A model generated the notes under the pieces. It had not been told where the DNA came from, did no database searches, and was given only the letters and a program-made list of their open reading frames with translations. A program made the position numbers and the translations under genes. DNA of 64,000 nucleotides from a virus: the IMG/VR virus record IMGVR_UViG_3300024344_000004, positions 237 through 64,236 of that record. The stretch is one strand, 5' to 3'. Shown one piece after another: positions 31,833 to 49,818 of the stretch (its first letter is position 1; each line of letters starts with the position of its first letter).

Positions 31833-32130
31833 TATATAAAGGTTACTGTTCCCAAACTGAGGAGTGCTATATAGAGCTTAGTATTGTTATTAATAGTAGC
31901 TTACCTATTATATCTATATATAGCTATATAATGACTTTCAAAATTTCACTCGATTTGTTTAAAGGGGTAGTCAAAGAAAATAGACGATGTGCCTTATAAT
32001 TTTAGACGGGGGGCTGAGATACTGAGAGACTACGCGAGAAGCTGAGAATATGAGCCTTAACCGGTGTTCTTTTTGGAGCTATAGATTAGAGAGCTAAGCA
32101 CGGATTGACCTAAAATCTTTATAAGTAGGT
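31833..32130. promoter_or_regulatory. Divergent promoter region (minus TATA 31833-31840; plus TATA about 32118-32125) with AT-rich core
   Basis: Coding-strand switch; two outward TATA boxes, each about 20-25 nt from an ATG. Confidence 0.7.
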
Positions 32131-32754: not shown

Positions 32755-33339
32755 ATGAACGTAAAAACATATATGAAAAGGGCATACGCAACAACGGACA
32801 TGAATAGGGCAAACTATCATGAATCGAACGCATTACACCATTTAATGGGGCAATTAATGTATCTCTCAGATACTGCCGGCATGAAGGGTCATGAATTGAA
32901 TAAATACGGTCGTCATGTAATCGAGCGATTACAAACCATCGTTAAAGAATTCGAGACAGGTAAAAACGAAGGAATCAATACAAAGGGAGGTGAATAAGTG
33001 AAATTCGAAATAGAATTAAATAAGTATGATATCGACCAAATGAATAAAAATCGATATGGACATGATGATGTGATAACTTATGGCTATATGTTAGACATAC
33101 TACATAACATCGTCGACCAAATACACGACCAACAATAAAGGCCGTGTGGGGGGTATGGGAGGGCTCCGGCCCTCTCAACCTATACCTAATACATGGAGGT
33201 AACTAAAATGGATAACAAAACATCAATAGCTGTAATTAGTGCATTGAAATATAAACTTCAAAACGAAGATTGTAAAATCAATTTACCAAAAGCAACTTAT
33301 GCAAAAGCATTAAGAAATAGTCTTATCAGACTAAGATAA
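32755..33339 (+). CDS. Three small hypothetical ORFs (32755-32997, 32998-33138, 33208-33339)
   Basis: Co-oriented; GGAGG(T) SD before the second and third. Confidence 0.55.
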
Positions 33340-33370
33340 ATATCTAAGGCCCTTAAATACGAGGGATTTT

Positions 33371-33442
33371 AACCTGCGTAGGTGAGAACCTGCGTGGGTG
33401 AGAAACAGCATGAGTGAGAAACAGCATGAGTGAGAAAGTGAG
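33371..33442 (+). repeat. Tandem 16-bp repeats ending in GTGAG
   Basis: aacctgcgtaggtgag, aacctgcgtgggtgag, aaacagcatgagtgag x2, then aaagtgag. Confidence 0.9.
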
Positions 33443-33443
33443 A

Positions 33444-33474
33444 TTTTCCACTCGTGTGAAAAAACCTTTATATA
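33444..33474 (+). promoter_or_regulatory. Palindrome TTTTCCAC-N4-GTGAAAA + BRE-TATA, copy 1
   Basis: ttttccactcgtgtgaaaaaacctttatata; ATG at 33496. Confidence 0.85.
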
Positions 33475-33495
33475 GGGTAGTGTTCTTGGTATATT

Positions 33496-33618
33496 ATGAG
33501 CAGAGGAGAACCATTTGGCAGTTGCGAGGACTGCGGGCTTGATGAGGTCGAACTATTCGGCGGACTATGTGAAGATTGCGAGTGTGAGATGTTTGCAACA
33601 TTCTGGACAGGAGACTGA
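33496..33618 (+). CDS. 40-aa Zn-finger microprotein
   Basis: MSRGEPFGSCEDCGLDEVELFGGLCEDCECEMFATFWTGD; leaderless. Confidence 0.7.
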   Translation: MSRGEPFGSCEDCGLDEVELFGGLCEDCECEMFATFWTGD

Positions 33619-33654
33619 GAGAAACCCTTATATAGGGTCACTCTATGGTATAGT

Positions 33655-33771
33655 ATGGCAAAACACCCGTGGGCGCATTTATCTTTAAAACAGATTTATG
33701 CCAATACAGAAAAACTAAAAAGAATACGCAAAGAAATGGAAAAGGAATTAGAAGGTGAATTAACTATTTAG
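33655..33771 (+). CDS. 38-aa hypothetical protein with own promoter
   Basis: aaacccttatatagg about 20 nt upstream; MAKHPWAHLSLKQIY... Confidence 0.65.
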   Translation: MAKHPWAHLSLKQIYANTEKLKRIRKEMEKELEGELTI

Positions 33772-33780
33772 ATTCCATGA

Positions 33781-33999
33781 GTCCCCAACACTGTAAGATG
33801 TGGCCGTAGGAGTAGGTGCACCATTTGGAAGTGGCAAGTGTATGAGTGAGTTTAATAAACTTTCCAGCATGGGGACAAGAGGAGACGCCTGACAAGTGAT
33901 GGCGAAGGGCCAGTGGCATAAGTCCGCCCGAGCGTTAAACGTAGCGACGCATCTCCAGCCCAGTGAGCCGGCCTACTACGGTGGGACAGCTGGGCGCCC
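33781..33999 (+). ncRNA. Candidate structured ncRNA A
   Basis: Stems GTCCCCA/TGGGGAC, GGAGACGC/GCATCTCC, GCCCAG/CTGGGC; crossing pairing 33804-33817 with 33971-33981. Confidence 0.6.
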
Positions 34000-34030
34000 T
34001 TTTCCACTCATGTGAAAAAACCTTTATATA
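34000..34030 (+). promoter_or_regulatory. Palindrome + BRE-TATA, copy 2
   Basis: ttttccactcatgtgaaaaaacctttatata; ATG at 34051. Confidence 0.85.
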
Positions 34031-34050
34031 GACACACCCGTTGGTAATAT

Positions 34051-34458
34051 ATGACTAGAAAACATTTTGTAGCAATAGCTCAGTTATTAGCCAAGCATGA
34101 CGCAGACCTTAACATGGTCCGAGACTTTGCCGGTATGTGTGCCGAACACAACCCACGCTTCGACAGAGAAACCTTTATAAAGGCCTGCTCAATGGAGTAA
34201 TATGAGCAAAATACAAGACATGAGAAACACCCACCGTTTCCGCAGAGTAGCACGCAGAACCATAACCAAAAACAAGATTGACTTAGGAGTCCATGAGCAA
34301 CTTATGGCTATCCGTTTGGGTCTTGCTGAGGATGTGAGAAATTGAAAAGCATCTTAGATATTTTAGATGACATGGTCATCTCTGGTATAAGCGAAGCAGG
34401 GGACTACATTGTTCTCTGCGGGTGTGAAGACGCACCTTGCTGTGGGTGCAACCTGTGA
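34051..34458 (+). CDS. Three coupled micro-ORFs (34051-34200 MTRKHFVAIA...NPRFDRETF; 34202-34345; 34342-34458 ending CGCEDAPCCGC)
   Basis: Translated by hand; short or overlapping junctions. Confidence 0.6.
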
Positions 34459-34576
34459 GCTACGACAAACCACTCAAACGCAGTTGGAAAAAAGAAACAA
34501 ATAAGATTATCAAAAAGGCCAGCCAATAGCTCGTTTGTTTTTCGGACACCTCCGGGGGGTAGGGCCTCCCCCCACC

Positions 34577-34607
34577 TTTTCCACTTGCGTGAAAAAACCT
34601 TTATATA
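34577..34607 (+). promoter_or_regulatory. Palindrome + BRE-TATA, copy 3 (preceded by a G6/C6 hairpin)
   Basis: ttttccacttgcgtgaaaaaacctttatata; ATG at 34628. Confidence 0.85.
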
Positions 34608-34627
34608 GACATACTCATTAGTATATT

Positions 34628-34864
34628 ATGAGCAAAAACTTATGTGGTAAGACACGCAAGACTGATGACCCTTATGAGGTCTGGACTGGCCCACGTGGCT
34701 TTGAATGGAGAGTATTAAAAAAATACCAGAACGCTGAGAACGAAGCAAAGAATCCTCACGCCAGATGGTTCTGTGCTGTTAAGTCAGACTTTACCTATGG
34801 TTCTTTTGAACTTGGTGATGTGTATGTCAGTGAGATTAAGAGCATGGGGGAAAAGCTTATATAG
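34628..34864 (+). CDS. Small conserved-looking phage protein (PYEVW...WRVLKKYQ...RWFCAVKS...ELGDVY)
   Basis: 78 aa, leaderless. Confidence 0.7.
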   Translation: MSKNLCGKTRKTDDPYEVWTGPRGFEWRVLKKYQNAENEAKNPHARWFCAVKSDFTYGSFELGDVYVSEIKSMGEKLI

Positions 34865-34886
34865 GGATACCCTATTGGTTATTATC

Positions 34887-35294
34887 GAGTGGGGAGCCCA
34901 AATTACCCCCACTCACTTATGGTTATCGGCCATAACACGTGACCTGAACTTAAAGACAAGAATAGACCATACGCCAACATACGACAAGCAATAACAAACT
35001 CAAGCTGAACAAGTGCTGACCAATCCCTTTCCGGTCGATGCGCATCTTAGTTGATTAACGACGTGTAGCTAAAATTTTGTATCACCTTTTGCCTCACTGA
35101 TTCCCTGTTATAAACTTAAGCGTATACAGCTATGAAGGAATTCTCTTTATCTTTTAGTGTCTCCGTCTCCTGACCGTTCGCGGTTTGACTCGGAGCAGGT
35201 CACACCCTAATGGACAAAACCTAGTTTGTCCTGTGGCAACCGCTCCTCAAGGTAGGCTTTAAATTCTAATTAGAGCCTTGGGTGAAGTTGCCAC
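34887..35294 (+). ncRNA. Candidate structured ncRNA B with its own promoter
   Basis: TATA 34857-34863; starts with GAGTGGGG/CCCCACTC stem; ends with GTGGCAAC/GTTGCCAC stem + T5; no credible ORF. Confidence 0.7.
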
Positions 35295-35295
35295 T

Positions 35296-35326
35296 TTTTC
35301 CACTCTTGTGAAAAAAGCTTTATATA
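35296..35326 (+). promoter_or_regulatory. Palindrome + BRE-TATA, copy 4
   Basis: ttttccactcttgtgaaaaaagctttatata; ATG at 35348. Confidence 0.85.
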
Positions 35327-35347
35327 GGGGTAGCCCCTTGGTAATAC

Positions 35348-35587
35348 ATGAGCCAAGCAACTCAGACTAAGACCAATCTTCCTTGGAAGAATGGAAGCAA
35401 GGAGGTCGACTACTACGTAGAAATCGGCACGACTCCGTATGGAAAATACGGATTATACAAAGAAATGATTCCTGTCGGCACAGGGAGCAGAGGAAGACAC
35501 ATGGAACTCGCTCGTGAGATTCGTCTGTCCAATCCAGAAATCTTTGAGGATTTAGAACTAAGACAAGTTGTCAGTAGGAGCAGATAA
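35348..35587 (+). CDS. Hypothetical protein
   Basis: 79 aa, leaderless. Confidence 0.65.
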   Translation: MSQATQTKTNLPWKNGSKEVDYYVEIGTTPYGKYGLYKEMIPVGTGSRGRHMELAREIRLSNPEIFEDLELRQVVSRSR

Positions 35588-35616
35588 GCTTATAAAGGCA
35601 CACCTATTGGTATAGT

Positions 35617-35949
35617 ATGACTAAAGCAAAGATGGATTACCTTTGGGCTCCAAAGGATGAAAAACTCGTGAGTTCTTTATTGGACTCGCTGGGATTTGCT
35701 CGTGTTGGTGTATCTCAACGATACCCAACCGGAGTAAAGTATGACTGCCTTGTAGCTATATGTGATGTTATCGGTTCAAACGATAAAACAGCATCTATGG
35801 TTGCATCTCGCACTCATGAACTGCAATCCAAACGGAAAGCAACAGGTAAGGCACCTTCAGTTGATTCAGTCGTTTCTGCACTTGCATCTGGTAAGATGTC
35901 AGAAGCTGATTTGAAGAAAGCAATGAAGAAAGCTGGACTATTGAAATAG
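35617..35949 (+). CDS. Hypothetical protein with own promoter
   Basis: 110 aa; aagcttataaagg about 20 nt upstream. Confidence 0.65.
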   Translation: MTKAKMDYLWAPKDEKLVSSLLDSLGFARVGVSQRYPTGVKYDCLVAICDVIGSNDKTASMVASRTHELQSKRKATGKAPSVDSVVSALASGKMSEADLKKAMKKAGLLK

Positions 35950-35965
35950 ATAGATAATAAGCACC

Positions 35966-36260
35966 TGAGCAAGTCAGAAAACTGCTCACCTTATATTTAT
36001 GGAAGTAGCTCTTCCGTAATCGGGTATGGCCGAACAAGTCCGCCACGGACTAAGGCACAGGACTGCGCAAACCGAGAAGCGACTGCTGGAGGAATGCAAA
36101 ACTGGTATGGGTTCTACTATGTAGTGGCATAAACCCATTGGAGGTATACATTAAATCCTCCTACCCATCCTTACATTGACGCCCCTTGACTTCCGTTATC
36201 GAATGCAAAAACATCGAGGAAGGAATGCTTTACCACCGGTGGTATATAAGTCAGGGGCTC
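35966..36260 (+). ncRNA. Candidate structured ncRNA C
   Basis: Serial hairpins TGAGC/GCTCA, GGAAG/CTTCC, AGTCC/GGACT, ATGGGTT/AACCCAT, GGAGG/CCTCC and terminal GCCCCTTGACTT/AAGTCAGGGGC before a T-run. Confidence 0.6.
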
Positions 36261-36268
36261 ATCTCTTT

Positions 36269-36286
36269 TTTTCCACTCAAGTGAAA
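36269..36286 (+). promoter_or_regulatory. Palindrome copy 5, not followed by a TATA box
   Basis: ttttccactcaagtgaaa. Confidence 0.6.
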
Positions 36287-36299
36287 CTTTTTCAAGATG

Positions 36300-36790
36300 C
36301 CTCAGCTCAACAAACCCCTCCTCCTCAGTTCGCTCTACAGAGCTCGTGAGAAATCGTTATCGGGCAGTGAGAAACTGCGCTCTCAGTTCAGGTTCAAACC
36401 AGAACCAATGGTCAGTAGGGCCAGATGAGAAAATAGTCTCAGTTAAGCACAAGCTCTACTAAGATTTTCGGTAGGCTACAATGAGAAAATGCTTAATGGA
36501 GCTTAGTTCGACACGTAATGTGTTCGTGCTCGAACTGTAGTAGTAATAGTTATCAGCCTATATTATCTCAGTTAAGCTTTATTATAATGCTCTACTACGC
36601 AAAGCTCTACTGAGTAATTAAGCTTTACTTAGTTAAGCTTTACTAAGCTCTTTACTTACAGCAATAATATGCATAACTAAGCTATATCTTAATATAGTTA
36701 ATATAGGGAACACGAACTATATAAAGTTTTGCATGAAAAAGCACCCCGTTTTTTATCTCAGTATAAAATCCGTGCGGGGCTCTCAGTCCA
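36300..36790. repeat. Non-coding region dense in CTCAG, TGAGAAA and AAGCT(C/T)TAC short repeats
   Basis: tctcagtt x3, (g/a)tgagaaa x4, aagctctac/aagctttac several times; AT-rich right part. Confidence 0.7.
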
Positions 36791-36832
36791 CAAAGGGAAA
36801 CGCTTATATAGGGGTATATTGATGTAGATACG

Positions 36833-37508
36833 ATGACTATGACCGACATCGACACATTAGCAATACAACTAAAAAGCATGACTGCCAAACAGTTACAACA
36901 ACTGTTAAGTGCAACCCCGAACCGAGACGGTTCCGCAATCAAAGCCCGTAAGATACGTGCAACTGAGACATACTTCAGGAATGTAAAGAACAATGGATTA
37001 TATCCACATAACTTTGAGTCCTTCCCTCAGTTCAGAGAGGTCTTACCTTGAGTGACGTAATCGTTAAGTTCAATAACTACATGACTCAGCACACAGACAA
37101 AGTCCCTTTGTTAAGTGTTCAGTCAACTGATGATAAACGTTTCACAGTGCTGAGGGAATTATTAAATTCCGTCTTCGATGATGTAGAAGACAATGCTTGG
37201 TCAGTATCAGTGAACTTAGGAAAGTTCGTAGATGCCCTCAGCACAATGGAACAAAAAGATATAGATACTATATCACGAACAGTGAAGAAGTATCAAGTCA
37301 AAGGCACTTCGAGTGGTATCTCAGGTGAGAGAACCTATGGATATGACCGAAGCCGTGTTGACCGTAAGATGATTAGAAGAAGGAGAGCCAACTGATGAAC
37401 TGCGTAGATTGTGGTGAATACAGTTGGACTGATAATGGTGGACATGAAATAAATAAATCATGTTGTGAACACTGTTTAGTAAATGATTATATAACAGGTG
37501 AACTATGA
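36833..37508 (+). CDS. Three small early ORFs (36833-37051, 37048-37395, 37395-37508 Zn-finger)
   Basis: Promoter aaacgcttatatagg near 36800; overlapping junctions; last ORF MNCVDCGE...CCEHC. Confidence 0.6.
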
Positions 37509-38683
37509 GTAGAAGAGAAGGAAGACCATCACCAACTGAGTCAGCTACTGAGTTCCCTCTACACTATGAACGTGTAGGCGGAGACGGTAGATATTGGCAC
37601 GTAAGTGAAGACAAGCGTGGAGTAAGAAGATGGAAGAAGGGATTATATCATGGTTCAGATGAGGATAAACTTCTCAGTTCAACAACCGAAACGCTTATAA
37701 AGGATGATATATCTGGAGATACAATGGAAGACAAAACCGACCACAGAGGACTCGACAGTCTATTCGACCGAGACAGTCCCATGCCAGCAGAGGAACCTAC
37801 CCCCGAAGAAGTGGTAGAAGTAGAGAAAGACACAGTGATGTCTAAACTAAGAGGGTCAGTCAATGTGCCCGAAGAGTTTAAATTCGCTGATGACATGACA
37901 TTCTATACTATGTTGAGAAACATATTTAGAGGTAAGAACATTCTTATCACAGGTCCCTCAGGATGTGGTAAGTCAAGTCTCGGTAAGATATTAGCTGATA
38001 TCACTGCAAAAGACTTTTATAGTTTTAACTTCGGTGACACTATGAATCCCTCAGCTAAGTTATTGGGTGACACTAAGTATGATAAAGAAGCCGGAACATG
38101 GTTCAAACCATCTCGGTTCGTCAATGCAATACAAGGTGATTCATTCATTATGTTAGATGAGGTAACACGTGACCGAACAGGTGACTTAGCTAACATTCTC
38201 ATGCCGGTATTAGATGGTCAAAAGTATTTAGCTCTCGATGAGAGTGAAGATAGTGATACTGTCTCAGTTAGTAAAGGTGCGTTCTTTTACGCTACTGCTA
38301 ACATAGGTAGAGAGTATCTCGGTGCATCTCATGATTTAGACCGAGCATGGAAAGATAGATTCACAGGTGGTATATATGAATTAGAATACTTACCACCACA
38401 GAAAGAGAAAGAACTGATACAGAACAGAAACCCTCAGCTTACAGACTACGATGCTGATAAGATTGTAGACTTTGCTAAGAGAGTGCGTGACTTACATTCT
38501 TCAGACGAACTCAATACTGCTGTTTCAACACGTATGTGTTTAGCATCAGCTGAGTTAGTTGTTGATGGGATGCCTTTAGTCGATGCACTGAAACACACCT
38601 GTTTACCGTTCTACCCTGTTCAGGGTGGTGACGATACTGAGAGAGTTCGTATTATACAAGTTATTCAATCAATGGGTGAATAG
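37505..38683 (+). CDS. MoxR/CbbQ-NirQ-NorQ-type AAA+ ATPase with an N-terminal extra domain
   Basis: GPSGCGKS, IMLDEVTR, FYATANIGREY, LDRAWKDRF, STRMCL; internal TATA 37695-37701 and ATG 37724. Confidence 0.88.
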   Translation: MSRREGRPSPTESATEFPLHYERVGGDGRYWHVSEDKRGVRRWKKGLYHGSDEDKLLSSTTETLIKDDISGDTMEDKTDHRGLDSLFDRDSPMPAEEPTPEEVVEVEKDTVMSKLRGSVNVPEEFKFADDMTFYTMLRNIFRGKNILITGPSGCGKSSLGKILADITAKDFYSFNFGDTMNPSAKLLGDTKYDKEAGTWFKPSRFVNAIQGDSFIMLDEVTRDRTGDLANILMPVLDGQKYLALDESEDSDTVSVSKGAFFYATANIGREYLGASHDLDRAWKDRFTGGIYELEYLPPQKEKELIQNRNPQLTDYDADKIVDFAKRVRDLHSSDELNTAVSTRMCLASAELVVDGMPLVDALKHTCLPFYPVQGGDDTERVRIIQVIQSMGE

Positions 38684-39070
38684 ATGGTTAAGAAGAAAGT
38701 ATTACGTAGAAAGCACACATATTGGCATCAGTTGGCTAAGTTCCTTATACTGAATGGTTACAAACCAACAATGATAGGAAAGATAATCAAGGATGTATTT
38801 CCCGAGACTGAGGTCAATGGTAGACACGTAGGTGCATACAAACGTAGATTGATACAAGATGAGGATATTCTCATCCCAAACAAACCAACTATGAATATCA
38901 ATGAAGTAAGAGAAATAGCTGAAGGCTTAGTTACTAACGAAGATATGTTTATATATAAATGTGTTATCGGTTCAGCTAAGAGAAGTCTTAAGTGCTTCGA
39001 GTATAAGTTCCGTAGTGAGGATAAAGATTTAGTAAGTGAGGTAGATAAATGGATTATGGCGATTCAATAG
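38684..39070 (+). CDS. Hypothetical, possible HTH protein
   Basis: 128 aa between AAA and vWA genes. Confidence 0.5.
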   Translation: MVKKKVLRRKHTYWHQLAKFLILNGYKPTMIGKIIKDVFPETEVNGRHVGAYKRRLIQDEDILIPNKPTMNINEVREIAEGLVTNEDMFIYKCVIGSAKRSLKCFEYKFRSEDKDLVSEVDKWIMAIQ

Positions 39071-41163
39071 ATGAATGGACTGAGGACAGTGAAAATGATT
39101 TCTGTTATGCGTGTGACGATTGGACTGATGCCGACGGTCATGGCAACTGTAAAGATTGTGGCAACAGTTACACTACAGTAGACCCATTCGTCAGTCCGAC
39201 TATAGCAAAGACATACAGTTCACCCGCACCTACTGTCTCAGCACATGGTGACCTTTGGAATAGGGGTTCGGGTTTCACATGGGGTGGTAGTTCATATTGG
39301 TCCGGTGGTGGAGCTACATCATGGGGTGGTTGGTCTCAGTCTACAAACGACAGTGCTCGTATGCTTAAACATAAAAGACATTTAGATTCTCTTTGTAAAG
39401 TAGTAGACCCAACTGTAAAGCATTCATTACATTTCGCAACTGAGTCGAAGAACTATTCGAACATGTCTAATGGAACTATATATGTAGATGGGACTCTCAT
39501 TGAACACGATGATGACAAACTCGACATATTAGCTGGTCTCTCAATACATGAGAAGTTACACTTAGTTCATACTCAACCATTAACTAAATGGGAACGTGAG
39601 TATAGTCACCAAAACAATCTTAGTTCAGCACAGGAAAGATTACTACATAACATATGTAATATCATAGAAGATGAATATATAGAATCTCAGTTAGCTAAGA
39701 CTCATGCCGGATACACTATGTATATTGAGAAGGTTAAACAACACTTCTTTGGTAAGCATGGTCACAAGATAGATGAGTTCAACGGTAATCCTATCGCTGA
39801 CATAATGAATACATTGTTAGCTATGGTAAGATATCCACAATCTATCTCAGCTGACCGTAGAAAGAAACACGCTAAGCATATTCAGTTCTTTGCCCGTGCG
39901 TTAACAGATGCATTAACTGATAGACATTCAACCTTTATGGCTATGGATAGTATTTATTGTTATATGAATCAACTCGCTAAAGAAGAAGCAGAGAAGCATG
40001 AAGGCACCGACGAAGAAGAAATACTACGACGTGCTGATGACAGGCTCAAAGACCTTTTAGGTGAGTGGGGTGAATCAGTTGGTGAAGAAATGTCAGCTGA
40101 AGACATGGAACGTATCAAAGATAGACTTATAGAAAAAGAACGTGACGAAGCTGAACGTGGTGATAGATATGACCGTAAAGAGAAATTGTCTCGAGCTTTG
40201 GATAAGTTCGCAAAAGAACTCGCTGATTATGGTTTAGATAGAGACACTATTTCAGATGCACTCGGTAGAGATATAGATGAGTTAGCTGACAGTGACTATA
40301 CTGAAGAGAAGTGGGATGTGTCCCGTGCTCTCGGTTTGAAACAAGGTGGTAAAGTTACATGGCGTAATCAAAGAGCCTCTTCAGACTATGATAAGAGTAA
40401 ATACACTGAGGCTGAAAGAAATATGAAATCAGCAATTGGTCAACTAAAGAGAAAGATACAACTATATGGTGACACACGTATTAACACCATTCGTAACCAA
40501 CGAAGAGGTAAGTTAGATAAACGTATGCTACATAAGATACCTCTCGGTCGACCCGACTTATTCAAGAATGTAATTATTGACGAAGACAAGCCACTCGATG
40601 TATGTCTCTTAGTCGATGAGTCAGGTAGTATGGGTTCATGGAAGATGGCTAAAGCACGTGAGACTGCGATTGCTTTACGTGAATCACTCAAAGATAATCA
40701 AGCTCTCAACTTATGGGTGTTTGGTCACACAGCTGACGGTTATGAATGGGATGGTAAAGGTGACACTAATATGTCAGTATATTGGTCACCTACATATAAA
40801 TCAGATATAAAGGCTATGGGTGCTATGACAGCACGTAGTGAAAACAGAGATGGTATGGCTATTCTCGCATCAGCTGAAAGAGTCAAAGCTGAGTCACCAT
40901 CAATGGGTAGCAATAAACTTATGATTGTTATCTCAGACGGTGAACCATCAGCAGACAAATACAGATTCCCAATCAGTGTGCCACATACTAAGAAGTGTGT
41001 CAGACACATTGAGGGACAGGGATGGAATGTAATTCAAATAGGCATCTCAGGTGCACGTGAATATATTATGAAAGATATGTTTACTAATTACATCCTGTGT
41101 GATGATACAGCTGACTTACCAACTAAGGTAAGTAAAGTAATTAGAAGGGTGATAAAAGTATGA
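39049..41163 (+). CDS. vWA-domain protein with HExxH motif and N-terminal CxxC pair (CobT-like partner of the AAA)
   Basis: HEKLH; MIDAS LLVDESGSM; LMIVISDGEP; CYAC...CKDC. Confidence 0.85.
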   Translation: MDYGDSIDEWTEDSENDFCYACDDWTDADGHGNCKDCGNSYTTVDPFVSPTIAKTYSSPAPTVSAHGDLWNRGSGFTWGGSSYWSGGGATSWGGWSQSTNDSARMLKHKRHLDSLCKVVDPTVKHSLHFATESKNYSNMSNGTIYVDGTLIEHDDDKLDILAGLSIHEKLHLVHTQPLTKWEREYSHQNNLSSAQERLLHNICNIIEDEYIESQLAKTHAGYTMYIEKVKQHFFGKHGHKIDEFNGNPIADIMNTLLAMVRYPQSISADRRKKHAKHIQFFARALTDALTDRHSTFMAMDSIYCYMNQLAKEEAEKHEGTDEEEILRRADDRLKDLLGEWGESVGEEMSAEDMERIKDRLIEKERDEAERGDRYDRKEKLSRALDKFAKELADYGLDRDTISDALGRDIDELADSDYTEEKWDVSRALGLKQGGKVTWRNQRASSDYDKSKYTEAERNMKSAIGQLKRKIQLYGDTRINTIRNQRRGKLDKRMLHKIPLGRPDLFKNVIIDEDKPLDVCLLVDESGSMGSWKMAKARETAIALRESLKDNQALNLWVFGHTADGYEWDGKGDTNMSVYWSPTYKSDIKAMGAMTARSENRDGMAILASAERVKAESPSMGSNKLMIVISDGEPSADKYRFPISVPHTKKCVRHIEGQGWNVIQIGISGAREYIMKDMFTNYILCDDTADLPTKVSKVIRRVIKV

Positions 41164-41263
41164 ATGATGATAATAATATGAAAGAAGCTCAGTGGTTTAT
41201 ATTAATCGCTGGGTTCATGATGTTATGGATGGTCATGATTATGATGCTGGGTTAAGGGTGACA

Positions 41264-41675
41264 GGTAATAAGTTGAGAATTTATTTTACTTAGTCGGTTT
41301 TGCTCATAGCTCAGCTTATTACCCACCAAACGCACGAAGACTTTGAACTTTGAAGCTCAGTTTGTTTATCAGGCCACGCTGACCGCTCCCTCATTAGAGG
41401 CAACGTCAGTAGTAGGACAGTATAAACAGAGAGGTAGCTATCGGTATGGTGATAGCTGAATACAAAGGAACCAAATATATCGTTTAGCCTAATCATTATG
41501 GCGACGAGTATATGTCAAGCATACCTCAGTATACCCCTGTAAATCTATCGTGACAGTTATGTCAGATGAGTTTGGAATGCTACATAGTAGCGTGGTATAC
41601 GAAAAAAGAAAGAGCACGATAGTTTCAGTTGCGAAGCTACACGACTCTTACTGAGAAGTCGTTCTCTCTTCGTGC
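41264..41675 (+). ncRNA. Candidate structured ncRNA D
   Basis: 14-bp stem 41264-41277/41310-41323; long-range helix GCACGAAGA (41332)/TCTTCGTGC (41667); crossed helices GTATACC/GGTATAC and CTATCGTG/CACGATAG. Confidence 0.7.
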
Positions 41676-41736
41676 ACCACAACCTTTATATAGGATAATC
41701 AAATATATTGAAATATAATCAAAAGGAATTGAAAAT

Positions 41737-42174
41737 ATGCAAACATTTTTACCAACAAAAAACTTTAGAACATCAGCCAAACTATTAGACTATCGTCGTC
41801 TCGGTAAGCAAAGAGTGGAAGGGCTTCAGCTCATCAACTCACTTAGTCCGGACTACGATAAAAAAGGTTGGCTCAACCACCCCGCACGTTTGATGTGGGT
41901 TGGTTACGAAAACGCTTTGAAACATTACACTAACGTAATGATAGAAGAGTGGGTTGCACGTGGATATAACAACACGATGCAATTATATAAAATAGAAGGG
42001 CCGATAGTATACCCTCAATGGTTAGGCTATCCGGAACTGCATAAGTCACATCGAATGAACCTACTTCGTAAGGATTACGACTTTTATAAACAGCACTTCG
42101 ATGACGATGCACAAACGGACCTCACAATCATAAACGAGTATGAATACTATTGGCCACCGGAGAAAGAAAGATGA
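41737..42174 (+). CDS. Pyrimidine-dimer DNA glycosylase (DenV/MSMEG_6728-like)
   Basis: MQTFLP...LDYRRLGKQRVEGLQL...HPARLMWVGYE...SHRMNLLRKD. Confidence 0.88.
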   Translation: MQTFLPTKNFRTSAKLLDYRRLGKQRVEGLQLINSLSPDYDKKGWLNHPARLMWVGYENALKHYTNVMIEEWVARGYNNTMQLYKIEGPIVYPQWLGYPELHKSHRMNLLRKDYDFYKQHFDDDAQTDLTIINEYEYYWPPEKER

Positions 42175-42268
42175 TAAGAGAATTATTAGTGTGGATAGAT
42201 AAGAAGTTTGGTTTGAACCGAACTAAGAAACTTATGATAAGACCACGTAAATACGGAGCAAAGAAAAA

Positions 42269-42726
42269 ATGAACTTAGAACAAGAGAACATGGAACTCAA
42301 AGAGATGTTAGCTGGTGCACAGTTAACTGAGGAAAACTTAAAGGATTACCTTTTCGAGATTTGTGATTATATTCACTACGAGATGCCACTCAAGGAACAG
42401 GACCGATGGCTTGAGAGGATGATTGAACTCGGACTATACACACCGGAGTTTGACTAATGGTCACAACTACAGGCGACGCAGTTCACTTTATGAAGATTGT
42501 TTTAGATTGGTGTTCACCGAAGGTAGCCCGAATGATGATGGATGATTTAGATTTCTACATCGCTGAGACTACTGATAACGAATCAGTTCGTGATTCTATT
42601 AAGATGGTTAGAGAGTTAATCTATGCGAGAGCAGAAGAGAACTTAGAGTTAGAAGCTGAAGAAGCAGAATGGCAAACAGCTCAAGAAATTATAGACGAAC
42701 AGAGAAAGATAGGCAAACCAGAATGA
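42269..42726 (+). CDS. Two small acidic hypothetical proteins (42269-42457, 42457-42726)
   Basis: Coupled ORFs from track. Confidence 0.55.
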
Positions 42727-43056: not shown

Positions 43057-43572
43057 GTGAGGCCCATTATGGGAAGAAAGGATACAGGAAAGAATTTCGA
43101 AAACGAAATAAGAAGAAGCTTGAAAAGCAGTCGCCACATATGGTGGTTTAGAATACAAGATACCAATGACATTAACAGATTCGTCAAAGTCGCAGTCGCT
43201 GAGAAGCAACCCGCCGATTTCTTTACAGTCTACAGAAGTAGACCAATTATGCTTGAGGCTAAAACTTCTCGGAATCTTACTTCTTTTCCTTTACATTATG
43301 GTAATACCCCTGCTATCGCTAAGCATCAGATAAGAGAGGGAGCTAAGTTGGAGAGAGCTGGTGGACTAAGTTTTATCTTGATAAGAAGAGAAGAATACAG
43401 AAACAAAAAGACATATGCAATTACACCATCACAGGCTAAGTATTTATACAGTAAGTCTTTCAAAAGAAAGTCAGTTAAATGGAGCTGGTTTGATGAACAC
43501 GCATACATTGTCGAAAGATTAAAAGCACCCTTGAGGTGGAATTTACAAAAACTATATGAAGAAGCAATATGA
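43057..43572 (+). CDS. Holliday-junction resolvase (RecU/Hjc-like PD-(D/E)XK)
   Basis: GKNFENEI, PADF, LEAKTS, HQ motif. Confidence 0.8.
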   Translation: MRPIMGRKDTGKNFENEIRRSLKSSRHIWWFRIQDTNDINRFVKVAVAEKQPADFFTVYRSRPIMLEAKTSRNLTSFPLHYGNTPAIAKHQIREGAKLERAGGLSFILIRREEYRNKKTYAITPSQAKYLYSKSFKRKSVKWSWFDEHAYIVERLKAPLRWNLQKLYEEAI

Positions 43573-43702: not shown

Positions 43703-44302
43703 ATGAAAGACATAATGAAAGAATACAGCACAACATTCTACGAATGTTTAGATGCGTGGCCAGATGATATCAAAGAAGATATATACAAACTATATGCATA
43801 CCTCAGAGTGTGTGATGAGATGGTCGAAGGTGAGAAGACACTACATGACTTCAAGAATTGGAGAGATGTTATAGAACAGTTCTATGAAGTTAGTGATAAG
43901 TATCAGTTCGATGGTCAATGGTTAGCTGACTTCCACGTCAGTATGTATCAAGATATGGTAAAGAAAGAACACACAATTGTATCTATGTTAGATTACTGTA
44001 AAGGTTCAGCTGAATCAGTTGGTATGATGATGTCTAAGATATTAGGATGTAACCCACGTTGTGAGATACACGCAAGGGCTCTCGGCAGAGCTTATCAGAT
44101 TATTAACTTCATAAGAGATTATGATGAGGATGTAGCCAATGGTTATCATTACATCACTGATAACTTCAGTGCATACTTAGAGATATTTTATCAAGACATA
44201 GATAATGGTATGGATGGTTTAAATTATATTCCAGAAGAGTTACAAGAGCCTATCATAATGGCTACTAAAAAATATATGGAAGTAGCGGGTGAATTCAACT
44301 AA
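43703..44302 (+). CDS. Compact phytoene/squalene synthase-family protein (CrtB-like)
   Basis: YSTTFY, LYAYLRVCDEMVE, SMYQDM, YCKGSAESVGMMM, ALGRAYQIINFIRDYDED. Confidence 0.8.
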   Translation: MKDIMKEYSTTFYECLDAWPDDIKEDIYKLYAYLRVCDEMVEGEKTLHDFKNWRDVIEQFYEVSDKYQFDGQWLADFHVSMYQDMVKKEHTIVSMLDYCKGSAESVGMMMSKILGCNPRCEIHARALGRAYQIINFIRDYDEDVANGYHYITDNFSAYLEIFYQDIDNGMDGLNYIPEELQEPIIMATKKYMEVAGEFN

Positions 44303-46436: not shown

Positions 46437-46643
46437 ATGGCAGAAAAAAATAGCTTAGAACTAACAGCCGGATTGTTCCGGAACACTGATAAGAACGGAA
46501 ACATCTACTACTCAGGTAAGTCCGAAGGTGGAGATGAATATGTTATGTTCAGGAATACCTATTGGAAAGAAGGAAGTAACAAACCATACTTCAGACTAAT
46601 GAAAAGAACTGATGGAGCATCTACTCCAACAGTGGAGGACTAA
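46437..46643 (+). CDS. Small beta protein, possibly ssDNA-binding (DUF736-like)
   Basis: GLFRNTDKNGNIYYSG...VMFRN...KPYFRL pattern; GGAGG SD. Confidence 0.45.
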   Translation: MAEKNSLELTAGLFRNTDKNGNIYYSGKSEGGDEYVMFRNTYWKEGSNKPYFRLMKRTDGASTPTVED

Positions 46644-46644
46644 A

Positions 46645-47016
46645 ATGTATGGAAGAGATGCAGACCGTATGATGGATATGTGGTTGGACTTACTATCACA
46701 GATAGAACAAGTTCCCTCAGGCCGTCATGCCCTATCTACACTAAGTAGAAAGGATGTCTCAGTAAATGTAGAGAATGGCACCATAACAATCACAGCTGAA
46801 TTAGCTGGTTTGGATAAAGAACAGGTTGATGTGGAAGTCAGTAGTAGAACAGTCACTATCGTAGCCAACTCAGAGAGAAAGAACTTCAAATGGGAAGAGA
46901 CTTTTCTATTTGAGTTAGACCCAGAGTCTACAAAAGCTACTATGGTGAATGGTATACTAGACTTAGTCATAGAAAAGAAAGTGAAGACATCAGCTAAGAA
47001 AGTAGAGATAGAATGA
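46645..47016 (+). CDS. Small heat-shock protein (HSP20/alpha-crystallin)
   Basis: ITAELAGLDKEQVDVEV...DPESTKATMVNGILDL. Confidence 0.88.
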   Translation: MYGRDADRMMDMWLDLLSQIEQVPSGRHALSTLSRKDVSVNVENGTITITAELAGLDKEQVDVEVSSRTVTIVANSERKNFKWEETFLFELDPESTKATMVNGILDLVIEKKVKTSAKKVEIE

Positions 47017-47763: not shown

Positions 47764-49236
47764 ATGAAAAAATATGAAATATACGATTTGCTAAGATATT
47801 TTCACAATGCAAAGAAAAAAGACGGAACACTTTTCCCTATACTAGGAGAGGATTCGTTAGCTCTAACTACAAGTCTATCTTACTTGTTAGAAGATACTAA
47901 CTTCTGTATTAAAGCATACAGTGGAACAGGTAAGACTGTATTGATGGAAGCTGTGGCAAACCTACTTCCAGAGGAGTATGTCTACTCAGTAGAACATATG
48001 TCAGAGACAGCAATATGGTATGATGAGGATAAAATCAACAAAGCTAGATTTGTTTTTATTCCAGAAGCACAAAAGATACCAGAGGGTGTCATGGAAATCA
48101 TTAAAACATGGGCAGACGGGCGAACAGCCCAACGTAAAAAGACAGATGTTACTATCAAGATGGCAGTAACACAGTGGTTAAAACCTAAATATGTTTTGAT
48201 GGCAGTAGCAGTAGAGAATGATAAAGGTTCAGCTATGTTTGATGCTGAGTTAGAACGTAGATGTATGATTATGCATACAAACCCTACAGTCAAACAGACA
48301 GAAAGAGTTATCAAACATAAACTTTTACATTCAGCTTCACCAAAAGCCTCTATGTCTTCAATGTCAGATAAAGAAATAAAAGATTTAAAGAAACACATAC
48401 TAACTACATTGAGAGAAAGAGACGAAGATGATGCGACTGTATTAAAGAATCCATGCGCCCCATTTCTATTTGACGCAATACCATCAGCATTCCCTGTATC
48501 ACGGTCGAAGGTTCAGTATCTATTGAAGTTGATTAATGCTATAGCAAGGTTTTATCCAGATGAGATAGTTAAAGTCAAACAAGATGGTATACAATATGGA
48601 CTAGTATCACCTAAACATAACTGGCTCGGACTGAGAATATATCTTAACTCATTTGTAGAAGAATGCTTACATATGCCAAGTCATGGAACAGACATACTTA
48701 AACTATTTCCCGAAACTAGATTAGATAGGTTTGGTTTTGCAGATAGTGAGACAGTTAAGATGTCAGAGAATGAATTGAAAAAGGCTGCTAAATCAGCTGG
48801 TCTACCATTTACCAAATTAAGACCAGTTATAGCAGGTTTAATGATGACAGGGTTCTTAGAGTGTGATGAAGAAGGAAGTAAAAAACTTTACTATAAGAGC
48901 CCACTCATTACAGAACCAGTATCAAAAATAAATTGGAGTGATTTAATTGAAGAAACGAAAGAGTTTATACGAAAAGAGTGGCCTAAAGTATCTGATGAAT
49001 ACATTGGGCGCAGTTGTAGCAGTATCAGGATTGTTGACCCGTTTAGTGGGGACAACATTGAACTGGGTGCGAGAGCAGAGACAGCGGTAGAAGTTGACAC
49101 TGGTGATTATCCGTCAGTGTTCAAGTCTTCTAGTGACGCTAAGATTAAAGACTACGAGTCTTTTCTACTAAATGCAGAGGGAGATTACAATGACGAAGAA
49201 GACAAAGCAGTCAGAGAATACTTTCAGAAGAAGTAG
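47764..49236 (+). CDS. MCM-like AAA+ P-loop NTPase/replicative helicase
   Basis: AYSGTGKT Walker A, FIPEAQK variant Walker B, ELERR arginine finger. Confidence 0.7.
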   Translation: MKKYEIYDLLRYFHNAKKKDGTLFPILGEDSLALTTSLSYLLEDTNFCIKAYSGTGKTVLMEAVANLLPEEYVYSVEHMSETAIWYDEDKINKARFVFIPEAQKIPEGVMEIIKTWADGRTAQRKKTDVTIKMAVTQWLKPKYVLMAVAVENDKGSAMFDAELERRCMIMHTNPTVKQTERVIKHKLLHSASPKASMSSMSDKEIKDLKKHILTTLRERDEDDATVLKNPCAPFLFDAIPSAFPVSRSKVQYLLKLINAIARFYPDEIVKVKQDGIQYGLVSPKHNWLGLRIYLNSFVEECLHMPSHGTDILKLFPETRLDRFGFADSETVKMSENELKKAAKSAGLPFTKLRPVIAGLMMTGFLECDEEGSKKLYYKSPLITEPVSKINWSDLIEETKEFIRKEWPKVSDEYIGRSCSSIRIVDPFSGDNIELGARAETAVEVDTGDYPSVFKSSSDAKIKDYESFLLNAEGDYNDEEDKAVREYFQKK

Positions 49237-49504
49237 ACTTCCTAAGCGAGATGAGATGTTTGCAGTAGTCATAGAGATGTCAGGGGGTTCTAGAATGAGA
49301 GCCCTCTGTGCAGACAGTAAAACCCGCATGATTAGAATCGGTGGTAAACTGAAGAAAAGAATGTGGTGTAGAGAGAATGATTTAATTATAGTTAAGCCTT
49401 GGGTTATACAGAGTGACCAAAAGGCAGACTTAGTTTATAGGTATCTCCCTACTGAGAGAAAGAATATAAGTAAAAAAATACCAGAGGAGTTAAACATATG
49501 GTGA
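49190..49504 (+). CDS. eif1a: Archaeal translation initiation factor aIF-1A (eIF1A)
   Basis: RLPKR.EMFAVV.EMSGGSRMRALC.D.KTRMIRIGGKLKKRMW.RE.DLIIVKPW..Q.DQKADLVYRY. Confidence 0.93.
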   Translation: MTKKTKQSENTFRRSRLPKRDEMFAVVIEMSGGSRMRALCADSKTRMIRIGGKLKKRMWCRENDLIIVKPWVIQSDQKADLVYRYLPTERKNISKKIPEELNIW

Positions 49505-49818
49505 AAGGAATAGAAGCTACCTATTTGGATTTTACTCGCAAGACAGCGAAATATCCAAAGCGTAGAGAGAAAGAATACCTAATGATAGGTTTGATGAATG
49601 AGGCCGGAGAAGTCGGTGGTGCATTCAAAAAAGAAATACGAGATAGAGTAGACAACACAGAACTCATTATAGATGAGATGGGTGATGTTTTATGGTATCT
49701 CCAGAGATTGTGTGATGTTTATGATATAAAGTTATCAGAACTCATGGTCAACAATATGGACAAACTATTTAATAGAATGTCACCGGAAGAAGCTGAAGCA
49801 TTCAGAGAAGGTCAATGA
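49498..49818 (+). CDS. MazG-like nucleotide pyrophosphohydrolase
   Basis: GLMNEAGEVGGAFKK...DEMGDVLWY. Confidence 0.88.
   Translation: MVKGIEATYLDFTRKTAKYPKRREKEYLMIGLMNEAGEVGGAFKKEIRDRVDNTELIIDEMGDVLWYLQRLCDVYDIKLSELMVNNMDKLFNRMSPEEAEAFREGQ

Follow-up and report, generated by a model that had tools for sequence, protein, structure and literature searches.

What do four segments without protein-coding capacity encode in the early region of a marine head-tailed virus? The question is raised by a window of 64,000 nucleotides (nt), positions 237 to 64,236 and nearly all of the 69,348-bp IMG/VR virus record IMGVR_UViG_3300024344_000004, in which an original prediction from the sequence had singled out four segments, here called A to D, as a suite of large non-coding RNAs of no known class. 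Comparison with homologs indicates that the four are very probably genuine structured RNAs, one known and three new: C is a manA RNA, and A, B and D are previously undescribed families. The proposed suite stands as a set of conserved, folded and apparently expressed non-coding RNAs, but C belongs to an Rfam family that was already described. The four RNAs are placed as follows.

33781–33999, plus strand: RNA A, a new family of about 220 nt in three domains (covariation, homologs, no Rfam match).
34887–35294, plus strand: RNA B, a new family and stand-alone gene of about 410 nt (minimum free energy (MFE), alignments, 55 homologs, RNA contigs).
35997–36171, plus strand: core of RNA C, a manA RNA (Rfam RF01745; 62.8 bits against a gathering score of 55.2, E 1e-13).
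41264–41675, plus strand: RNA D, a new and rarer family (MFE z -4.1, covariation, few homologs).

As predicted, none of the segments contains a convincing open reading frame (ORF), no ORF is conserved among the homologs, and 1-nt indels are frequent. The segments are nevertheless conserved at 70–99% identity across related IMG/VR and metagenome contigs, and dozens of related marine viral contigs keep the order A-B-C. Between the segments lie small ORFs that are conserved at the protein level, so that small protein genes and RNA elements are interleaved in this region. Compared with dinucleotide shuffles, the folding energies support structure in B (z -3.6), C (z -2.8) and D (z -4.1), but not in A, whose z of -1.3 is not significant. 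Covariation, set against shuffle and slide controls for A, B, D and manA, is found among the homologs, with compensatory changes that are strong for A and B and moderate for D, for which 4–6 sequences are available. In the A and B alignments, G-U pairs accompany the covariation only when the plus strand is read. An all-against-all search for covarying columns, aimed at extra helices and pseudoknots, gave a signal that was too noisy.

All 4227 families of Rfam 15 were scanned, at the gathering cut-off over the window and at E<=5 over positions 33000–42500. The gathering-score scan returned manA as its sole match, as did the loci of the relatives, and the E<=5 scan returned only three noise-level matches, none inside A or D. 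A, B and D match no Rfam model of tRNA, tmRNA, signal recognition particle RNA, RNase P, group I/II introns or ribozymes, nor those of GOLLD, ROOL, OLE, raiA, IMES or wcaG; they are not manA either, the manA model giving no match to them at E<=5 in 33000–42500. ARAGORN reported no tRNA or tmRNA. The unassigned status claimed for the whole set holds for A, B and D but not for C. We found no description of structured RNAs in marine archaeal viruses in the literature.

RNA B provides the clearest case of an RNA gene, and two of its features are needed in what follows.

34857–34865, plus strand: TATA box of B, overlapping the stop codon of the upstream 78-amino-acid (aa) ORF.
35034–35062, plus strand: candidate dimerisation hairpin of B, with the stem GUCG (35034–35037)/CGAC (35059–35062) and a 21-nt loop.

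The distance from the TATA box to the first helix of B (34887) is 29–30 nt, the same as from TATA to ATG at the neighbouring leaderless genes, and relatives without the first hairpin keep this spacing. At its 3' end B runs into a T-run and a TTCCAC element, and the next gene has a TATA box of its own. Because B has its own TATA box at the standard spacing, ends at a T-run and is followed by an independently promoted gene, it is a stand-alone RNA gene. The fold comprises an optional 5' hairpin (34887–34914), a hairpin 2 (34917–34935), a core closed by 34939–34946/35196–35203 and an optional 3' domain (35233–35294). Compensatory changes affect 25 of the 59 pairs in an alignment of 11 sequences and 28 of 59 in one of 53, with 91–94% of cells paired (91% on the 53 sequences). 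The closing helix, helices 4 and 6, the stem of the dimerisation hairpin and the 3' hairpin of the core are 95–100% paired; four inner helices are weaker (69–81%), probably through misalignment of one subgroup. Metagenomes scanned with a pattern in which the loop positions were free yielded 59 contigs; the distinct B homologs number 55. The matches of a 16-base B pattern in viral contigs were mostly due to chance.

The 5' edge of the 21-nt loop is an 8-nt palindrome, AUGCGCAU, at 35038–35045. Although the search pattern put no constraint on these positions, the same eight columns form a perfect palindrome in all 55 distinct homologs, in seven versions: AUGCGCAU (n=28), ACGGCCGU (n=13), AUGGCCAU (n=6), UCCUAGGA (n=3) and, more rarely, UCGCGCGA (n=2), UCAGCUGA (n=2) and CCUUAAGG (n=1). 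A random 8-mer is palindromic once in 256 cases. There is no other such block of columns in the B, A or D alignments, and other palindromes, AAAATTTT and CTAATTAG in B and GGTGCACC in A, are not maintained in homologs. The stem that presents the loop is 100% paired, and three of its four pairs show compensatory changes (GUCG/CGAC, GAUG/CAUC, GUUG/CAAC). At least 16 switches between versions occur on a tree built without the palindrome columns, which suggests that lineages exchange the hairpin as a module, palindromic in every case. A mini-hairpin as the cause of the palindrome was rejected, since its loop would be formed by the central four nucleotides, and these are palindromic in every homolog. 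RNA homodimers are known to use palindromic pairing as a motif (PMC12990946), and we consider it probable that B pairs with itself, loop to loop. Pairing between different RNAs of the set was considered as well and rejected: the complementary 9-mer of B and C and the 11-mer of C and D are attributable to chance, and the B partner changes in the related locus L002 when manA does not.

RNA libraries contain A, B and D. Run X20 is an oligo-dT library that was retrieved with the entire 8.6-kb stretch; 15 of its contigs come from the region, and of those listed, the two that match best cover A at 33820–33970 (151 nt, exact) and B at 35045–35252 (two mismatches), and the others come from diverged relatives. 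Words of the A-B stretch are present in 13 RNA runs, which come from at least eight studies. Besides X20, four metatranscriptomes drawn from four studies were examined: all four have contigs of B, two have contigs of A, and two or three have contigs of D, which brings B to five of the five runs examined; a D contig spans 41348–41585, and the AUGGCCAU variant of the B palindrome is also present in RNA contigs. These data place B, A and D in RNA libraries, but the contigs show no ends, strand or level.

RNA A combines a helix P1 (33781–33786/33871–33876), a middle domain closed by GGAGA (33881–33885) and TCTCC (33952–33956), and a 3' hairpin (33958–33964/33989–33995). Homologs were collected with nhmmer and aligned with MAFFT; 40 are distinct. 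Across 16 sequences, 98.8% of cells pair and compensatory changes affect 20 of 49 pairs, with a covariation score of 0.321 against 0.133 for shuffled alignments (0/500 reach 0.321) and at most 0.064 for slid ones. Alternation between G-U and G-C identifies the plus strand as the one that folds. Two finer claims about A did not survive the comparison. In the proposed loop-loop pseudoknot the 5' partner, AGGAGUAGG, is invariant, but the 3' partner loop is deleted in 5 of the 16 homologs and divergent in others. The 9-mer AAGTCCGCC, noted as common to A and C, is indeed present in both, yet it is not conserved in the A homologs and lies in different structural contexts; we estimate the chance of one such shared 9-mer at about 1 in 4, so that the coincidence is at chance level. 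The surroundings of A consist of:

33655–33771, plus strand: leaderless 38-aa ORF directly 5' of A, with a TATA box at 33626–33635.
34000–34017, plus strand: T-run and TTCCAC-N4-GTGAAA at the 3' end of A, abutting the next B recognition element (BRE)/TATA box (34022–34031).

The 38-aa peptide is conserved in 19 loci at 50–100% identity. A begins 10 nt 3' of this ORF and has no promoter of its own, the TATA box at 33626–33635 being the only one available for its transcription.

RNA C is, on the evidence of the covariance model, a divergent member of the manA family. The match spans model positions 1–192, the whole model, and manA was recovered in 16 further related loci at the same position, after the homolog of a 110-aa ORF, with 56.6–69.2 bits. 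RNAalifold on ten family members recovered P1, the long-range closing helix and the internal hairpins, and within the virus family 16 of 46 pairs show double changes. The core is followed by a further element:

36177–36258, plus strand: three-way hairpin, optional, that follows manA; a T7 run and the fifth copy of TTCCAC-N4-GTGAAA (36271–36286) come next.

A T-rich spacer replaces the three-way hairpin in the related loci L002, L012 and L014, and a different, shorter hairpin replaces it in L013. The apical hairpin of this domain (36229–36246) is a perfect palindrome, UACCACCGGUGGUA, which in relatives becomes CCGGCGCCGG, CUAGCGCUAG, CUGGCGCCAG or ACUGCGCAGU, with a tetraloop that is always the self-complementary CCGG or GCGC; it may be a second self-pairing site or, equally, an ordinary hairpin with an inherited loop. 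C lies 3' of the 110-aa ORF, which has no assigned function, and is followed by a T-run and a repeat-rich region. There is no TATA box after C in the window, and most relatives do not keep the 43-aa ORF that follows (36297–36428) as an ORF. The 2010 description of manA (Weinberg et al., PMC2864571) drew on marine metagenomes, T4-like cyanophages and two gamma-proteobacteria and listed the RNA as a riboswitch candidate in 5' untranslated regions (UTRs). No mannose/fructose, nucleotide, ibpA or photosynthesis gene lies 3' of C, so the described 5'-UTR context is not reproduced here; genomic context is not part of the Rfam family definition. According to a 2026 cryo-electron microscopy (cryo-EM) preprint, several manA RNAs assemble by kissing loops into pentamers, and from these into decamers and a 60-mer cage (10.64898/2026.07.01.735769).

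RNA D begins with a 5' hairpin of 14 bp (41264–41323), and its 344-nt domain is closed by GCACGAAGA (41332–41340) and UCUUCGUGC (41667–41675), with a TATA box next at 41684–41693. Full-length D was found in only four contigs, to which a pattern scan added none; a mini-version of about 130–190 nt in loci L014 and L140 keeps the 5' part and the closing helix. In an alignment of five sequences, pairing holds in 88% of cells, and both sides have changed in 29 of 96 pairs, a covariation that is suggestive of the fold but thin. The crossing helices proposed for D show one-sided changes only, among four sequences. In other relatives the locus holds unrelated sequence or almost nothing, with no Rfam match. 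Three relatives have an ORF-poor sequence of 0.8–1 kb in the D slot (L129:3616-4447, L132:3646-4635 and L017:11450-12500), which has in common with D only the 5' hairpin or the 3' end and has no Rfam match. Judged from these sequences, the D locus appears to be a slot whose occupants vary and include further non-coding RNAs.

The segments were said each to end at a T-run or directly before the next promoter. This is accurate for A, B and C at a T-run and for A, B and D before a TATA box, but not for C with respect to the promoter. The punctuation between them is recurrent:

33446–33461, 34002–34017, 34579–34594, 35298–35313 and 36271–36286: the five copies of TTCCAC-N4-GTGAAA.

Against 0.09 copies expected, these five are confined to 33446–36286; a T-run precedes every one of them, and all but one abut a BRE/TATA box. 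Across relatives the arms are nearly invariant (TTCCAC / GTGRAA) and the four central positions vary. Because the arms are nearly invariant and the centre is variable, a protein-binding inverted repeat fits better than a terminator hairpin, and by its sequence the element looks more like an operator for a dimeric early-promoter regulator than like a simple terminator. A conserved G+C-rich hairpin at 34540–34578 (GGGGGGUAGGGCCUCCCCCC), followed by a T-run before the 34599 promoter and 83–100% conserved in relatives, does look like a terminator. Clusters of a GTGAGAAA repeat flank the cassette array at 33376–33445 and 36290–36830, and occur also at 31990–32060. The stretch 36290–36830 is rich in further repeats (CTCAGYT, AAGCTCTACT, TTAAGCTTTACT) and may be an origin or a regulatory region. 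In the whole window TCTCAGYT occurs 28 times against 5.6 expected, on both strands and also inside genes.

The promoters themselves bear on the nature of the virus. Genes lie on the minus strand to the left of ~31.8 kb and on the plus strand to the right of it. Upstream of the plus-strand early genes stand CTTTATATAG-type boxes, with 30 matches against 10.5 expected; in the cassette region they lie 29–30 nt upstream of the ATG, without a Shine-Dalgarno sequence. By its motifs, this is the archaeal grammar of BRE/TATA promoters combined with leaderless mRNAs. The same genome encodes an archaeal-type initiation factor:

49172–49504: aIF-1A (Pfam eIF-1a, E 1.8e-15).

The factor has hundreds of metagenomic homologs at 66–90% identity. 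In genome collections its top match (82%) lies on a contig of 10.9 kb from a Maricaulis metagenome-assembled genome (MAG) bin; this is probably a viral contig that was mis-binned. A further match (42%) is in a Nitrosopumilales MAG. The promoter grammar and the encoded aIF-1A agree with the predicted early region of an archaeal virus, and on these grounds the designation 'archaeal-type virus' is accepted. The virus further encodes a T4-type large terminase, an HK97-like capsid protein, a family B DNA polymerase (PolB) and a ribonucleotide reductase. The capsid protein has no match among GenBank phage records, the PolB matches are all below 25% identity, megablast of the region gave no match, and magrovirus papers offered no decisive marker. 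The same virus is present, at near-identity, in DNA runs of 13 studies, covering seawater, subsurface, hydrothermal-vent and plankton samples.

The genes around D were annotated as follows.

37505–41163: CobS-like ATPase (AAA_5 + CbbQ_C, phrog_249), a 128-aa ORF, then a 704-aa VWA protein (Pfam/PHROG matches).
41160–41255: hydrophobic ORF of 31 aa, overlapping the stop codon of the 704-aa VWA protein and conserved in 12 loci.

The 704-aa protein upstream of D has a C-terminal VWA domain and only a weak CobT_C match. A Ro60/Y RNA module formed by the VWA protein and D was considered and rejected: the pair is CobS/CobT-like, and no TROVE domain was found at E<=5. Auxiliary genes further downstream encode a pyrimidine-dimer DNA glycosylase (Pyr_excise, 41737–42174), a RecU-like resolvase (43057–43572), a short squalene/phytoene synthase (SQS_PSY, 199 aa, 43703–44302), HSP20 (46612–47016) and MazG (49498–49818). 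Among the protein partners proposed for the RNAs aIF-1A was confirmed, but no Sm-like or WYL protein was found among the 24 ORFs for which the Pfam threshold was E<=0.01 or looser, a scan that is not exhaustive; for ten further large ORFs it was E<=0.001 only.

How might such RNAs act? We lean, with some reserve, towards trans-acting, self-associating structural RNAs made early in infection, because B is an independent gene with a dimerisation signature and because manA RNAs self-assemble. The early plus-strand region consists of short cassettes, each composed of a promoter, a small ORF or RNA gene, a T-run with TTCCAC-N4-GTGAAA and the next promoter, and four such cassettes carry the conserved structured RNAs. 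On this reading B is transcribed from its own promoter as a non-coding RNA of ~300–410 nt with an 8-nt self-complementary sequence exposed in a hairpin loop, and two B molecules would pair loop to loop into a homodimer or the seed of a larger homo-oligomer. The RNA set would serve as scaffolds, cages or decoys and not as riboswitch-like cis-regulators. That trans-acting assemblies are the function of the set is a tentative proposal. A bolder version, which we regard as unlikely, is a toolkit of self-assembling RNAs held by the virus family, in which manA and B, perhaps also A and D, would form RNA-only homo-oligomers, and the loop of B would be a specificity 'allele' against mixing with the RNAs of co-infecting relatives; if true, RNA-only quaternary assemblies would extend to archaeal viruses and the loop versions would be a natural series of dimerisation variants.

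Several points weigh against trans-acting, self-associating RNAs. Palindromes occur as features of double-stranded DNA too, which makes a co-evolving dimeric DNA-binding protein a formal alternative to the putative homodimer of B. D rests on 4–6 sequences. manA was originally proposed to be cis-regulatory (PMC2864571), and no RNA contig of manA was found in the five runs examined. The RNA contigs of the other segments are assembled and unstranded, without end or level information, and the four additional runs were chosen for holding A-B words, with DNA carry-over possible. The lineage of the host is not established by the aIF-1A, capsid or PolB comparisons. A and C have no promoter of their own and lie just 3' of small conserved ORFs, a position that fits UTR elements equally well. 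This leads to the main rival, cis-acting elements. Here the 38-aa and 110-aa ORFs would have A and C as their structured 3' UTRs, unless A and C are 5' leaders of the sequence after them, and D would be the 3' UTR of the CobS/CobT-like operon; like riboswitches, the elements would govern whether transcription terminates at the T-run downstream, how stable the mRNA is or how well it is translated. A, C and D, all without a TATA box of their own, do start 10–50 nt beyond the end of a conserved ORF; each of the three has a T-run after it, a signal for termination in archaea; and manA is listed as a 5'-UTR riboswitch candidate (PMC2864571). Yet B and the gene after it each have a promoter at the standard spacing, which leaves B without an obvious cis target, the ORF after manA (36297–36428) is not conserved in most relatives, a self-complementary loop has no role in a classical riboswitch, and manA RNAs self-assemble in vitro (10.64898/2026.07.01.735769). 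We judge the cis-acting explanation to be rather improbable.

Much less probable still is that the segments are DNA-level modules for origin function, packaging or recombination, whose palindrome and inverted repeats are protein sites and whose RNA structure is a by-product. The GTGAGAAA clusters and the repeat-rich region that flank the cassette array, the operator-like TTCCAC/GTGRAA element with its near-invariant arms and four variable central positions, and the apparent exchange of the palindrome hairpin as a module among lineages would all suit such modules. They leave unexplained why compensatory changes, with many G-U intermediates, pair on the plus strand only, why helices span up to 260 nt and why the segments occur in RNA libraries; seven palindromes would moreover need seven co-evolved proteins. 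Small proteins that escaped recognition, or another genetic code, are the least credible explanation, even though A is G+C-rich and its homologs contain minus-strand stop-free stretches of 51–96 codons: no ATG-initiated ORF is conserved in length or frame, 1-nt indels fall inside the conserved core, variation is concentrated in paired columns with compensatory changes, and the neighbouring genes are all on the plus strand.

Trans-acting, self-associating RNAs thus remain the explanation that we prefer, and B offers a direct prediction of it: B should form homodimers through a loop for which nature supplies seven compensatory versions. Hardly any structured non-coding RNA of an archaeal virus is described in the searchable literature; the three new families are targets for cryo-EM and for RNA family databases, and B has been recovered in marine metatranscriptomes of several studies.

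The arrangement of the region can be compared with PeSL (promoter-early stem-loop) modules. In T4-like phages, early genes are organised as short modules between a stem-loop and an early promoter. The likeness is that here too modules, RNA ones included, are optional or exchanged between relatives; unlike in PeSL, the promoter is an archaeal BRE/TATA box and the arms of the stem-loop are nearly invariant in sequence (TTCCAC/GTGRAA). The B loop, for its part, resembles the palindromic dimerisation loops of the HIV-1 dimerisation initiation site (DIS) and of the HYER1 and HYER5 ribozymes (PMC12990946), in which an apical or internal loop presents a perfectly self-complementary 6–10-mer whose sequence differs between lineages while its palindromy is kept. 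The RNAs and their biology are unrelated, B being apparently neither a genome nor a ribozyme, and the B loop differs in having 21 nt with the palindrome at its 5' edge.

GOLLD, ROOL and OLE are large ornate RNAs, in many cases carried by phages or prophages, and form homo-oligomers made of RNA only (PMC12286853). Like them, B and D are large (~400 nt), elaborately folded and virus-encoded, and B has a signature of self-association. Unlike them, B and D are shorter, have no Rfam match at E<=5 and are carried by an archaeal-type virus, and oligomerisation is here a proposal. The closest known relative of the set is manA (RF01745) itself. C shares with it a full model match above the curated cut-off, covarying helices and a marine, virus-borne origin, as in T4-like cyanophages; its family scores of 56–69 bits, near the cut-off, mark a divergent subgroup. 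manA is an orphan RNA and stands here beside three further conserved RNAs. Known sources of manA are cyanophages, gamma-proteobacteria and unassigned marine DNA, whereas the present carrier has archaeal-type promoters and aIF-1A; fixed at one early-region position in a virus with archaeal signals, manA widens its host range across domains.

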